From: Candidatus Micrarchaeota archaeon
GTDB lineage: Archaea; Micrarchaeota; Micrarchaeia; Anstonellales; Bilamarchaeaceae
DNA length: 64,000 nucleotides
Assembly (NCBI GenBank): GCA_038046805.1
Contig: JBBSVO010000003.1
Location: forward strand, 51,120-115,119
Reading direction: 5' to 3'
Shown: piece by piece, positions 24,949-49,073 of the stretch
How positions within the stretch are numbered: position 1 is the stretch's first letter
Layout of the letters: the number at the start of each line of letters is the position of its first letter
Translations under genes and position numbers: made by a program
Notes under the pieces: model-generated
Told to the model about the DNA's origin: nothing
What the model saw: only the letters and a program-made list of their open reading frames with translations
Databases searched by the model: none

Positions 24949-25107
24949 GTAAAAAACACCTCTGAAAGATATATTGATACTGAGTTAGACTAGCGGAATT
25001 ATTTATAAGCAAGGTTCGGAAACGTAACTGAACGCGGAACGCAAAACTCGAAACAGAATTATGCCTGGTTAACGTATTTATTTAAACAATGTCCGCAAAA
25101 TCCAACC

Positions 25108-26199
25108 ATGCCAGAACCATGGTTTCCCTTGCCATTAGCACTTGCCCCTCCGAGGGAAAAAACCGGAAAACTAGAACTCATCGCACCGTTGCCAACTTTT
25201 GCATTGGAATTGTTGGAAACAGACAAACTGAGGATGAAGCTTGGTCTGGACATGGCATATTCCGCCTTTGAAAACCTTCAGAACATCTATAAGGGAATGT
25301 CTGCGGGAGAAAAAAGCGGAGAGTCCGGAACACTCGGAATAAAATACGTCCTTAACAGCGGTGTTACAAAATCCCCGTCCGAGGTTTTGGCGACGGGGAA
25401 AGGAGACTGCGACGAGATAACAAGGCTGGCTTTCCTTTCTGCCTCTGGGCTTGGAGCCCAAAACGCAGTCATGGTTGAAATGACCTGGACAAATCCCAAG
25501 ACAAAACTGTTTGAGGGGCATTCCGCGCTGGTGCTGATACCTGAGAATCCGCTGGATGCCCCACTGGTTTTTGATTTCACATATCTGCATGATGGAAAGC
25601 AGCTGGAATCCGCAGACCTTGAGAAAGGGCTGAAGAAGTTCTATGCAGAAGATGCGAAGAATCCTGATTTTAAGATAGCGCAGTTTGGAACTGTTACGGA
25701 AGTGGAGGCGTCTTATTACGACAAGGTCGGCTGGCAGTATTCCACGATTGGAAATTGGGAGATGACCGCGCTGGCTTATGAAAAGGCGGTGGGCCTTGTG
25801 CCTGATGGATTTGAGTATAACCGAAATCTTGGCTTCACTTATAAAAAATTAAAGAAATATGAAAAGGCTCTGGAGTATTACAAAAAAGCGTCTGAAACAA
25901 AAGAAGGAAAAGAAGACACGGAGACTTATTCAAATATCGGAGATATCTATTTATCATTAAAAAGATACGAAGAAGCAGGGCAAACGTTAAAACTTGCATT
26001 GTCCCTAAATCCGAACAGAACGCTCTATGAAACAATAGGTCATAACCTTGCAACTGCAATGTTCAAGGAAGGAAAACGTCTTATGAATGAAAAAAAACAT
26101 GACGATGCCCTTGCTCATTTCAATGAAGCCTTGCAATATTTACCTAGCAATGAGGATATTAAACATATGATAAAACTGTTAGAAACAAAAACAAGATGA
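25108..26199 (+). CDS. Transglutaminase-like domain plus TPR repeats
   Basis: GDCDE...GHS...FDFT triad, C-terminal TPRs. Confidence 0.8.
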   Translation: MPEPWFPLPLALAPPREKTGKLELIAPLPTFALELLETDKLRMKLGLDMAYSAFENLQNIYKGMSAGEKSGESGTLGIKYVLNSGVTKSPSEVLATGKGDCDEITRLAFLSASGLGAQNAVMVEMTWTNPKTKLFEGHSALVLIPENPLDAPLVFDFTYLHDGKQLESADLEKGLKKFYAEDAKNPDFKIAQFGTVTEVEASYYDKVGWQYSTIGNWEMTALAYEKAVGLVPDGFEYNRNLGFTYKKLKKYEKALEYYKKASETKEGKEDTETYSNIGDIYLSLKRYEEAGQTLKLALSLNPNRTLYETIGHNLATAMFKEGKRLMNEKKHDDALAHFNEALQYLPSNEDIKHMIKLLETKTR

Positions 26200-26200
26200 A

Positions 26201-26572
26201 TCACCTAATATTGGGTGCAGGGATTAAATTACTGGGGGTTTCTTTTGGTTTTAATGTCATTGAACCATCCGGATCAAGTTGCATCTTCGATCCGTATTTG
26301 CTAATGAAAATAACTGTGCCATCACGTTGCGTTTCAATAATTTTACCTTCAGCAACAATATCCCCGTCTCCATCAAATATTCTAATAGTTCCATCTTTTC
26401 GCTTAAGTAATACTATTCCATTTGGATAAGTAACCTGTACTTTCCCGGGCACAGTACTTTTCGCATCTGCCATAATCCCTTCTTGCATTGAAGGTTTAAA
26501 ATCAGTTGGCTTGACCGAAGAGCATGATAGGGCGAACGCAGCGATTGAAGCACCAACAATCAATCTTCGCAT
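26201..26572 (-). CDS. Small lipoprotein with beta-hairpin repeats
   Basis: MRRLIVGASIAAFALSC, repeated (P/R)DGT motifs. Confidence 0.7.
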   Translation of the reverse strand: MRRLIVGASIAAFALSCSSVKPTDFKPSMQEGIMADAKSTVPGKVQVTYPNGIVLLKRKDGTIRIFDGDGDIVAEGKIIETQRDGTVIFISKYGSKMQLDPDGSMTLKPKETPSNLIPAPNIR

Positions 26573-26736
26573 GTTATAGATATAGTTAAAAAAGGATATA
26601 AATCCATCAGTTACAATCACCCTTCAGAAAGCGACTAAAAATAGAATAATAGACACAACCCGAAACTGGAAACAAGAAACCATAAAGCTGCTGCATCAAG
26701 CTTTTCGGCTCATTACAGAACTGAAAACCGGAGACC

Positions 26737-26968
26737 CGAAACAGTAAACAGCATGTGCCACACGTGTTCAAGAGCCCTTCAGGGGGAGCGCCCCCTAAAG
26801 TGCTTCACCCCCAGCAACCCCCCATAGCGAATAGACTTCAAGACACAAAACTCGAAACAGTAAACAGCATGTGCCGCACGTGTTCAAGAGCCTTTTTGGC
26901 TTATGGTTTCTAAGGGCAAAAACGCGTCGCGAAAAACCATGGAAAAGCATTGTGCCGCACGTGTTCAA
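26737..26968 (-). repeat. Three copies of TTGAACACGTGYGGCACA (3' end of candidate RNA) separated by structured or heptamer inserts
   Basis: Copies near 26754-26771, 26870-26887 and 26951-26968. Two copies share 40 nt of context. Spacing 116 and 81 nt. Confidence 0.85.
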
Positions 26969-27025
26969 CACACCTTCATAGTTTAAACTCAGGCGGCCAT
27001 TAGCGCACGGCACAGGATAAATAAA
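26948..27025 (-). ncRNA. Candidate archaeal box H/ACA guide RNA
   Basis: Basal stem GCCGUGCG/CGUGCGGC, internal pocket, CGCCU/AGGUG stem with K-turn (CUGA...UAUGA), 3' ACA, promoter AAAGGTATATAT about 25 nt upstream. Confidence 0.6.
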
Positions 27026-27105
27026 ACGGATGGATGATATATACCTTTGTGGTAGTTTTCCTATAATAGTATAGCTTTTAAATACGTGGATGCAAATAGA
27101 AGAAT

Positions 27106-28833
27106 ATGACGATTGCTCGAATGCAAGAAGTGGCAGATAAACCAACAATAATGCCAAGGTTATATGCCGTACCTGGGTACGAAACGATCCAAAAACTAAC
27201 GTCCCTTAACCACCTGATGAAGGAACTTGGGGAAACCAGCCTTGCCCACCTTAGACATATCACCAGGACAGGAAATGACGAATTTTATGGACATATAGGC
27301 GTCCCGACAGGTGAAAAAAGGCAGATAAAATTACAACGGGGGATCCACGGGCAATATCTTATTGATGAAACAGATGCTGATTATTTGCGGCAACAGCGAC
27401 AGCTTAGAAAATTAGGATATACTAGCTGGAGCGACACGAAAAGAGCTATTAGCGCAGCGCTTCCGGACGGGATGAAGGAACTTCCAAAAAGCATGCTTGA
27501 GGAACGGATTACATGCCAGGGAAGGGTATCGAAGTTGAACTATCCCGTATTGTCAAAAAGGGGAAAGGATACTTGCATAGTCCTGTTGAGGCTGACCAAC
27601 GAACTTTTTTTAAGAAATGAAGACGCGGAATTCATAATCAGGGAAGAGGTAAGGAGAAGAACGAAATTTGTTTCTTTTGCCGATGTTGCGAAAACGCTCA
27701 GCGTGACGCTTAGGACAATTCACAACTGGGCACATACTGGCAAAATCAGCTGGGTCAGATACGGCGAGGATATGTTTATGTGCAGGCAAGATGCAACCAG
27801 GCTGTCAGAACAGGATGCTCGGATCACGGCCGCAATGCCGCATAAACAAATGGGGGTGGCACAGGCTTTTGCAGCAGTTGGCATTACGATCAGTAGTTAT
27901 GGAAAAGATATTACAACCATTGACGGGCAACGATATTACTTATACGAACATATCAATACTGGCGGTAAAGTAGCGGTGCGCAGGATACCCTTAACCCTGG
28001 GAAGCGACCATAAATTATATATGCCAAAATCCGACGCTGATTATATCAGGGACAGGGAACGCGAGGCTTCAATGTGGTTTACATCCAAGCGTTTTTGTGA
28101 AACCCTTGGAATCTCTCCAGGGAAAGTAACCGCAAGTGCCACCCCGAAAGAAAGAAAACTACGCTTTTACGTCGGGCGTGGGATATATCTGGAACTTGAT
28201 TACGTCATACATAGAGACGGGATACTGATTAAACCAGATGATGTCTGTGCGCTTGCGCGCGTTATTAACACTCTTGGAAATGGTTGCAAAAGGTTTGAAT
28301 CAATCAGATATGCCCACGAATTGCTGGAAGAACATCTTGAAATTTTAGAACCTTCAAAAGGCATTTTGCGACTTGGTGAGCGAGTTCTCAGGTATGAATT
28401 AGGCGAGGTTTTGAAAATAGATTTTCAGAATTTCGGGGTTCCTTTTATGAAAATAAAACCTGCTGGCTCCGAACAGCCCGAAATCGTATTTGGAAGGGAA
28501 GGCGCTGAACTCGCCAGCCTTTATGTTGGCCTGATGCGCGACCATAGACTGGCTTCAGATCTGGTCATGTCGGTATTTGATGCGGTCAATGGAACGAACG
28601 GAAACGAATATGCACCAAGAAGATTAACCGATTTTCAGAAAGCAGTCGCATGGATTGCGAGATTTGCTTATATGGTCAGGAACGGTTCGAAGCACCCATG
28701 GTTCGAAGCAGTTGATAACATTGCGCATGATTCTCCTTTGCAGACAAGAATTTATGACCCAGGCGTGCCTGATAAATTTGTTTTCAAAAGATTAACCAGT
28801 GATGGGACTGCGAGAAAGGATTCCGATGGATAG
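27106..28833 (+). CDS. Hypothetical protein with tandem Xis/MerR-like HTH modules
   Basis: SFADVAKTLSVTLRTIHNWAHTGKI and recurring hxxxDAxY/F wing motif. Confidence 0.7.
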   Translation: MTIARMQEVADKPTIMPRLYAVPGYETIQKLTSLNHLMKELGETSLAHLRHITRTGNDEFYGHIGVPTGEKRQIKLQRGIHGQYLIDETDADYLRQQRQLRKLGYTSWSDTKRAISAALPDGMKELPKSMLEERITCQGRVSKLNYPVLSKRGKDTCIVLLRLTNELFLRNEDAEFIIREEVRRRTKFVSFADVAKTLSVTLRTIHNWAHTGKISWVRYGEDMFMCRQDATRLSEQDARITAAMPHKQMGVAQAFAAVGITISSYGKDITTIDGQRYYLYEHINTGGKVAVRRIPLTLGSDHKLYMPKSDADYIRDREREASMWFTSKRFCETLGISPGKVTASATPKERKLRFYVGRGIYLELDYVIHRDGILIKPDDVCALARVINTLGNGCKRFESIRYAHELLEEHLEILEPSKGILRLGERVLRYELGEVLKIDFQNFGVPFMKIKPAGSEQPEIVFGREGAELASLYVGLMRDHRLASDLVMSVFDAVNGTNGNEYAPRRLTDFQKAVAWIARFAYMVRNGSKHPWFEAVDNIAHDSPLQTRIYDPGVPDKFVFKRLTSDGTARKDSDG

Positions 28834-44038: not shown

Positions 44039-44189
44039 TGCGACCGTCGGGATTCGAACCCGAGTCATTAGCTTGGAAGGCTAAGATCCTACCGATGTCC
44101 AAACCAAATGGCAGGTGATGCATTATGGTTTTCGAAAACCTTTTGCCATAAGGTTTCATCAGCCAAAAGGTTTGCTAGACTACGATCGC
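44039..44189 (-). tRNA. tRNA-Gly(TCC) with 80-nt intron at 15/16 (44095-44174)
   Basis: Spliced GCGATCGTAGTCTAG/CGGTAGGATCTTAGCCTTCCAAGCTAATGACTCGGGTTCGAATCCCGACGGTCGCA, BHB-like helix GTCT/GGAC. Confidence 0.93.
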
Positions 44190-48961: not shown

Positions 48962-49073
48962 GGGGTCATGGGCTAACCTGGTAGACTACCGGCCTTGGGC
49001 GTCGGTGATTAGAGTTCAAGAGCCAGTCTAGACGCAAAACTCAAGACTGGAAACACAAATCTCTATGACCCCA
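48962..49073 (+). tRNA. tRNA-Pro(TGG) with 39-nt T-loop intron (about 49020-49058)
   Basis: Acceptor GGGGTCA/TGACCCC, TAGAG-TTCAAAT-CTCTA restored on removal, junction ambiguous by 2 nt. Confidence 0.9.

Follow-up and report, generated by a model that had tools for sequence, protein, structure and literature searches.

The repeat array and its small RNA gene

The window, that is, the whole stretch of 64,000 nucleotides analysed here, is part of a 1.2-Mb archaeal genome in 16 contigs. In this window, a 530-nt spacer (26576-27105) lies between P0002, a small lipoprotein-like gene on the - strand (26201-26575), and a gene for 575 amino acids on the + strand (27106-28833), which gave a weak HTH_17 match only and had no relative among the 40 related genomes searched. 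On its left, the array is bordered (26576-26716, no strand assigned) by the upstream region of P0002 and a heptamer-rich stretch; this border was recognised by its identity to the upstream regions of P0002 paralogues (65% over 144 nt to C6:146059-146193 and 88% over 32 nt to C7:114433-114464). These two paralogues, at C6:146059 and C7:114433, share a near-identical promoter region with P0002. The closest relative found, G115, carries the genes for FttA, proteasome, peroxiredoxin and ferritin in the same order as this genome, with amino-acid identities of 98%, 96%, 92% and 92%, respectively. As compared to G115 (locus L068), a TPR-repeat gene (25108-26199) and P0002 with about 145 nt of its upstream sequence intervene here between the peroxiredoxin gene and the small RNA gene described below, the difference spanning 25055-26716 of the window. 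A different gene without detectable similarity stands in G115 (L068, 1642-3069) in place of the 575-aa gene, and this position beside the FttA gene looks like a variable slot. Synteny in G001, G002, G003 and G006 breaks at the 3' end of the FttA gene, or the gene is absent, and these genomes offered no comparison.

The 18-mer TGTGCCRCACGTGTTCAA has three exact occurrences in the genome, all in this spacer (26754-26771, 26870-26887 and 26951-26968), with spacings of 116 and 81 nt, and no further match was found elsewhere in the genome with up to 2 mismatches allowed. The threefold repeat described in an earlier sequence-only reading of this DNA was thereby confirmed. Likeness between copies 1 and 2 extends beyond the 18 nt (34 of 35 nt, and 83% over 63 nt). 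The order of the array is H1-E1-H2-E2-H3, where H denotes the 18-mers and E the inserts, and all its parts are given on the + strand. Repeat search and flank alignment delimited target copy 1 (26717-26771), which comprises a heptamer leader and H1, and repeat search and alignments likewise delimited target copy 2 (26833-26887), a duplicated heptamer leader with H2. Between them lies element 1 (26772-26832), a family-1 mini-element identified from its BLAST homologues and its fold. Element 2 (26888-26950) was assigned to tRNA-intron family 2 by BLAST to tRNA introns, and is followed by a type-B hairpin small RNA (26949-27019), detected with a covariance model, whose 5' arm is H3.

Short repeats in a metagenome-assembled genome raise the concern that the copies were made by mis-assembly. 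We consider this extremely improbable, because an independent 848-nt Logan contig from run X7 of another study spans 26529-27376 with 0 differences; the array is thus real DNA and no assembly artefact. Contig pieces from two further studies (X8 and X11) were concordant piecewise, and alternative joints were not seen. The sole contig from an RNA library, a metatranscriptome, is 161 nt long and lies outside the array, at 26453-26613.

Arrays of RRACNNN heptamers are found genome-wide in leaders, intron tails and spacers, e.g. at 26650-26750, 25010-25055 and 49030-49056 of the window, and an 18-mer taken from the heptamer tail had 40 genomic matches with up to 3 mismatches. This bears on a 27-nt stretch which had earlier been read as an insert end, 21/27 identical to the end of a tRNA-Pro intron. 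The number is right, but it does not rise above a heptamer-aware background: 11 genomic 27-mers, the tail and its duplicate among them, reach at least 21/27 against this tail, 3 of them with a score of 22. Moreover, the stretch is not where the insert ends; it is the heptamer leader of the target in its duplicated form. A module of 76 nt, made up of heptamers and two small hairpins and located between two tRNA genes on contig 9 (G000:C9:12561-12636), is 72% identical to 26654-26729 of the window, to the left of copy 1. Heptamers also occur in frame inside a gene of three relatives (L022, L031 and L032), which was taken by eye for glycyl-tRNA synthetase.

The spacer contains a conserved hairpin small RNA gene of about 72 nt. 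The repeat 18-mer is the 5' arm of this RNA, which runs downstream to 27014, and is not the 3' end of an RNA. When the spacer was compared by BLAST with relatives, the matches began at copy 3 and extended downstream, and five homologues aligned as a hairpin. The covariance model R1, built from these five, scored 86.6 bits at 26949-27019 and gave a full-length match (about 72 nt) in 92/99 family genomes, with one or two matches each. On 31 aligned matches, 15 of the 18 pairs change on both sides, which was reached by none of 500 shuffles, and 85.6% of the alignment cells are paired as compared to at most 46% with the partners slid. The strand of the RNA is fixed by the many U-G pairs on the + strand. 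Two paralogue types were distinguished. Type A, with a conserved, irregular internal loop TGTTGACC/GGCCATCC, is nearly universal and has its copy in this genome (G000) at C6:116038-116111. Type B, with TGTTCAAC/CCATTA, was found in this genome, G115, G021, G063 and G008; here its 5' arm is the third 18-mer and the partner 3' arm, CGGCACA, ends at 27014. Apical expansions of 15-49 nt were observed in the hairpin RNA of genus g19 (loci of the set L069-L120).

Rfam gave no match for the window, the array locus or 12 homologous loci. A hidden multi-intron or split tRNA gene was rejected, as neither an RF00005 match at E<=10 nor a tRNA by ARAGORN with introns was obtained, and a T-arm-like reading of copy 3 failed for want of an acceptor partner (by eye). 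We also rejected a fragment of 5S rRNA, which GGCGGCCAT resembles; the 5S gene of the genome sits at C3:145167-145280. An antisense or guide function towards 23S rRNA was rejected because the matches of the hairpin RNA extend over only 7-12 nt (E 0.86 or worse), the best complements being 8-12 nt long at E 0.9-3.4. The 23S rRNA gene itself probably carries large insertions or introns, because its match (G000:C2:119808-124180) spans 4373 nt as compared to a model of 2987 positions.

Two inserts of tRNA-intron families

Element 1 consists of a 54-nt core, GAGCCCTTCAGGGGGAGCGCCCCCTAAAGTGCTTCACCCCCAGCAACCCCCCAT, ending at 26825, and a 7-nt tail, and folds into a 5' hairpin followed by a C-rich 3' part. 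The core is the conserved family-1 core GAGCCCTTCAGGGGG...AGCAACCCCCCAT, family-1 mini-elements being about 54-62 nt long. The ends of the element, GAGCCC... and ...CCCCCCAT, do not form inverted repeats, and the hairpin lies inside the element. Classification as a MITE was rejected, since terminal inverted repeats are absent and the duplications (18-69 nt) are not short and fixed. Homologues of element 1 were found in 8/99 family genomes, belonging to 3/23 genera, at 82-100% identity, and the match of 100% over 56 nt is to copies in another genus. G086 alone has at least 9-12 family-1 copies at 86-100% identity. This patchy distribution, together with the near-identical copies across genera, therefore argues for recent spread.

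The same family supplies introns of tRNA genes. Element 1 shares 92% identity over 61 nt with the T-loop intron of tRNA-Lys(CUU) in G001, which shows a textbook splice motif by eye (helix AAGGG/CCCTT, central helix TTCA/TGAA, bulges AAG and AAT), and 96% over 51 nt with an intron in the anticodon loop in G003. In G105, a family-1 intron is located in the anticodon loop of one tRNA gene and in the T-loop of another. In the window, the 11 nt GTTCAAGAGCC link the array to tRNA-Pro. This 11-mer occurs four times in the genome, in copies 1 and 2, at the T-loop/intron junction GTTCAA|GAGCC of tRNA-Pro(UGG) (49014-49024, + strand), which served as comparison site, and in tRNA-Pro(GGG) at C11:37367, the anticodons having been read by eye. 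It is common to the array and to tRNA-Pro because a GAGCC-headed element stands behind GTTCAA in both, and the sequence-only reading was correct in that two of the copies run into GTTCAA-GAGCC exactly as at the tRNA-Pro junction.

Outside tRNA genes, family-1 copies are flanked by direct repeats, of which the left one abuts the GAG 5' end of the element and the right one follows after a short variable tail. The target duplications around family-1 copies measure 19, 22, about 35, 49, 58 and 69 nt. For element 1 at this locus, the flanks gave a Smith-Waterman score of 38 as against a maximum of 14 in 100 shuffles. Among 11 non-tRNA family-1 copies, the flanking repeats exceeded all 100 shuffles in 6; a flanking repeat was not seen in 4 (L134, L139, L142 and L143) and was marginal in L130 (p ~0.04), and one copy, L140, was placed wrongly by the flank-scan script. 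In the grpE-dnaK spacer of G102, a marginal repeat case, a family-1 element lies between two copies of the ribosome-binding/start region of dnaK, while all 6 congeners with a match (6/6) have a single copy without the element. This element (L154, G102:C114, about 1830-1950 of the locus) is inserted five codons into dnaK; a short reading frame now begins in the left copy of the start and crosses the element, and dnaK is preserved whole by the right copy. For the G086 copies, a DNA search in 7 congeners gave no empty site, the sequences being too divergent (one 83-nt match).

GTTCAA had been suggested as the target of such elements. It does fit both sites here, but across the copies the preference is only loose and there is no strict T-loop motif. 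The insertion points read by eye end in GTTCAA (twice, here), GTTCAAC, CTCAAA (twice), ATCAAG, GTGAA, GAAAAG and CCCTC, which suggests a loose preference for ...AA(A/G/C), mostly ...CAA(A/G/C) or ...GAA, T-loops included.

Element 2 belongs to a large tRNA-intron family, CTTTT(T)G...GGGCAAAA...GAAAAnCCnTGGA, whose members in this genome interrupt D-loops, anticodon loops and a T-loop of tRNA genes. BLAST against tRNA introns gave 88% identity over 41 nt and 77% over 65 nt (E 2e-7), the matches at this E value being D-loop and anticodon-loop introns. Intron heads of the CCTTTT(T)GG type, to which the beginning of this insert had been likened, are indeed present in the tRNA genes of the window at 44170 (-), 45225 (+) and 46778 (+), and with an E value of 2e-7 the likeness goes beyond that 9-mer. 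Element 2 is most closely related to a copy at C6:218029, which lies outside tRNA genes and is flanked by a repeat of 28 nt; the flanking repeat of element 2 itself scored 20 as against a null maximum of 15. Element 2 lacks the 3' closing strand of family 2, and its last 5 nt (AGCAT) could be part of the duplicated target instead. On the same contig (G000:C6:217936-218160), two tandem family-2 elements were observed outside any tRNA, each followed by a CTCCCATGCARRGAT segment, and the second of them contains a nested double-hairpin mini-element.

Single-copy alleles and competing explanations

At the syntenic site in G115, a single 18-mer is followed directly by the rest of the hairpin, without an insert, and neither insert had a match anywhere in G115 at E<=0.01. 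An empty single-copy allele in a relative, as proposed for a check of intron mobility, was thus found. By this comparison of alleles, the triple copy is to be read as derived relative to the single-copy state; the single copy of G115 could in principle be a secondary deletion between direct repeats. At 49 of the 51 hairpin-RNA loci examined, a second copy of the own 5' arm is absent. The exception besides the present locus is G021, of another genus, where two identical copies of its own 17-mer, GCCGTGCGGTGTTCAAC, surround a 74-nt insert, which aligns to element 1 across the whole core (score 19, null maximum 14 in 500 shuffles). Both exceptions concern the type-B, GTTCAA-type paralogue (2/5 loci vs 0/46, related genomes not being independent). 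Two public collections gave 27 exact matches to TGTGCCRCACGTGTTCAA, 26 of them in unrelated organisms and one in G115 (L056). With up to 3 mismatches, the matches to TGTGCCRCACGTGTTCAA in relatives, from 6 loci, were coding or unrelated. The 18-mer as a motif conserved elsewhere was rejected, the 4 recurrent matches all being in one gene, taken by eye for glycyl-tRNA synthetase.

The claim that intron-like elements outside tRNAs duplicate their target was upheld, because the inserts are homologous to tRNA introns, G115 has a single copy, and flanking duplications occur around such elements elsewhere. For the array itself, we consider it likely from the sequence comparisons that two successive insertions of tRNA-intron-family elements took place at one point just 5' of the RNA, each duplicating the target. 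A triplication free of any mobility, in which slippage or unequal crossing-over multiplied a single ancestral unit of 18-mer and spacer in tandem, with later divergence of the spacers or their gene conversion from tRNA introns, would account for the tandem layout and for a weak alignment of the neighbouring units (65% over 156 nt), and the nearby heptamer repeats favour slippage. However, beyond the 8-nt GAGCCYTT, nothing significant is shared by elements 1 and 2 (score 6, p 0.72), whereas the 18-mers agree at 17-18/18 positions; the array is therefore not a simple tandem duplication of one unit. Neither does such duplication agree with the 56 nt that element 1 has in full identity with copies of another genus, nor with the recurrence of element and duplication at unrelated loci with verified empty sites, and we regard it as quite improbable. 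The origin that had been assigned to the repeat, as the triplicated 3' end of an H/ACA guide RNA situated upstream, could appeal to ACA triplets after the third copy (CAACACACC) and after the hairpin (CGGCACAGG). This is very improbable, since the conserved RNA begins, and does not end, at the 18-mer, and nothing in G115 corresponds to the region upstream of copy 1. Within GCACAGC, after the lower stem, the A where an ACA box would have to lie forms a base pair and is replaced by G in concert with its partner in the 31-sequence alignment (UA:18, CG:9 at columns 10/62), and the trailing sequence is not conserved; an H/ACA guide RNA was rejected on these grounds. No GA/AG kink-turn was seen by eye in the same alignment, and no Rfam H/ACA family matched even at E<=10.

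The inserts might also be working bulge-helix-bulge introns of a small RNA precursor, in which the 18-mers pair and excision of 116 or 81 nt yields one hairpin RNA. Introns of this type carry, at their borders with the exons, two 3-nt bulges around a 4-bp helix. The elements are real introns in tRNAs, and a motif can be drawn between copies 1 and 2 (GCAU GUGC CAC ACGU on both strands) that would release a 116-nt intron (26761-26876). Removal of 116 or 81 nt would restore one copy by construction. This motif, however, has two G-U pairs in its central helix and 3/4 pairs in both outer helices, and an equivalent for copies 2 and 3 was not found. The locus contains 10 such motifs as against a mean of 9.15 (range 4-18) in 20 shuffles. 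The scan recovered the D-loop intron of the G001 tRNA-Lys and missed its T-loop intron, which has a relaxed inner helix, so that a strict scan is not discriminating here. Copy 3 with the downstream arm is already a complete RNA, and the contig from the RNA library provides no RNA reads over the array. Splicing of this kind is improbable in our judgement.

Possible history of the array and routes of tRNA intron gain

Two insertions, as favoured above, would have started from an ancestral state like that of G115, with a promoter, a heptamer leader and the type-B RNA. Element 1 would have inserted after GTTCAA in the 5' arm of the RNA, duplicating about 35-58 nt upstream of the insertion point, and element 2 would then have inserted after the same GTTCAA in the right-hand copy, duplicating about 18-23 nt; each duplication would have left an intact RNA gene at the right-hand end. 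We infer that element 1 came before element 2, because H2 and H3 are identical in sequence while H1 differs at one base (A as the 7th base of H1), and the order rests on this base. Such insertions may be tolerated because a long duplication regenerates the intact start or arm of the struck gene. The elements are presumably mobilised in trans, and would persist as introns where the landing site allows a bulge-helix-bulge, e.g. in tRNA T-loops.

Junction similarities, namely GTTCAA + CC(C)TTCA on the left and AAA(C)AGCA on the right, at the truncated end of element 2, would fit a copy-in by template switching at short microhomologies, which we put forward tentatively, as somewhat less probable than not. 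Staggered nicks, as in retroposition, would likewise agree with long duplications that vary in length; such a retroposon-like route is in our view unlikely. Matches to RVT_1 were found in G000 and G001, whereas none was found in G102, G105 or G086, the last being 95% complete and having the most copies. The reverse-transcriptase-like open frames with these matches are at G000:C11:673-1092 (-), with 54.6 bits, and at G001:C24:7173-7592, with 58.6 bits.

Introners of eukaryotic algae and protists are short non-autonomous elements whose insertion with target-site duplication creates introns genome-wide; in their case the introns are spliceosomal, DNA transposons give rise to them, and the duplications are short and of fixed length. 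The elements described here resemble introners in being short and non-autonomous, in duplicating the target and in giving new introns, but differ in that splicing is by the archaeal endonuclease and ligase, the duplications are variable (18-69 nt) and no terminal inverted repeats were seen. An archaeal counterpart of introners in some members of this Micrarchaeota family, i.e. gene-less structured elements of about 60 nt which spread within and between genera with duplications of 18-69 nt and become tRNA introns where a bulge-helix-bulge folds, has in our estimate a little less than an even chance of being the right description. The accompanying notion, that insertion occurs after ...CAA(A/G)-type sites and that T-loops above all become introns, is held with the same reserve, just short of even. 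SINEs and other retroposed sequences, which move by target-primed reverse transcription, offer a second parallel, since they too are gene-less, structured, tRNA-linked short elements with long variable target duplications and a variable tail. Unlike SINEs, the elements here have a precise 5' end and a variable 3' end (on the strand shown) and lack an A-rich tail, and G086 harbours them without an RVT_1 match.

Thermoproteales have related introns that occupy different positions in tRNAs, a pattern taken since 2010 to mean transposition (Fujishima et al. 2010, Mol Biol Evol 27:2233, as cited in PMC10714607; bioRxiv 10.64898/2026.10.13.758758). The passages citing that work give no insertion footprint or mechanism for the transposed introns, whereas here copies are also found outside tRNA genes, with long target duplications and verified empty sites. 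For Caldiarchaeum, Sugahara et al. 2012 (PMC3293823) set out a model in which a mobile element integrates into a tRNA gene and part of the tRNA is duplicated, and propose this route for intron gain and for scattered tRNA fragments. Direct repeats of a segment of an RNA gene flank the inserted DNA both in that system, as described there, and in the present array; that element, however, is 1.8 kb long with a predicted recombinase, while the inserts here are about 60 nt, encode nothing and have a duplicated segment that varies from site to site. A full-text literature search, in which Fujishima et al. 2010 was represented by the papers citing it, returned no account of archaeal elements that resemble tRNA introns and duplicate their target. 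What the sequence comparison appears to add is a small RNA gene as a host that is struck twice, and a direct link from it to a genuine T-loop intron whose splice motif is canonical.

The gain and movement of protein-spliced introns in archaeal tRNA genes is an unsolved problem, and a 2026 preprint on Asgard archaea (bioRxiv 10.64898/2026.10.13.758758) still regards the route by which archaeal tRNA introns arrive as open. The locus gives this problem a concrete, testable footprint: one and the same short element serves, with a canonical splice motif, as an intron in the T-loop of a tRNA, and stands outside tRNAs as an insertion with a long target duplication and empty sites that can be verified. 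The defined junctions allow the mechanism to be inferred (template switching, staggered nicks or a retro-route), and the genomes with and without the element are a set in which the mobilising enzyme can be sought. If the elements are indeed an archaeal counterpart of introners, they would represent the long-sought route by which archaeal tRNA genes gain introns, and the non-tRNA copies would be its unselected footprints. The array described here may thus be a rare look at how such introns spread.
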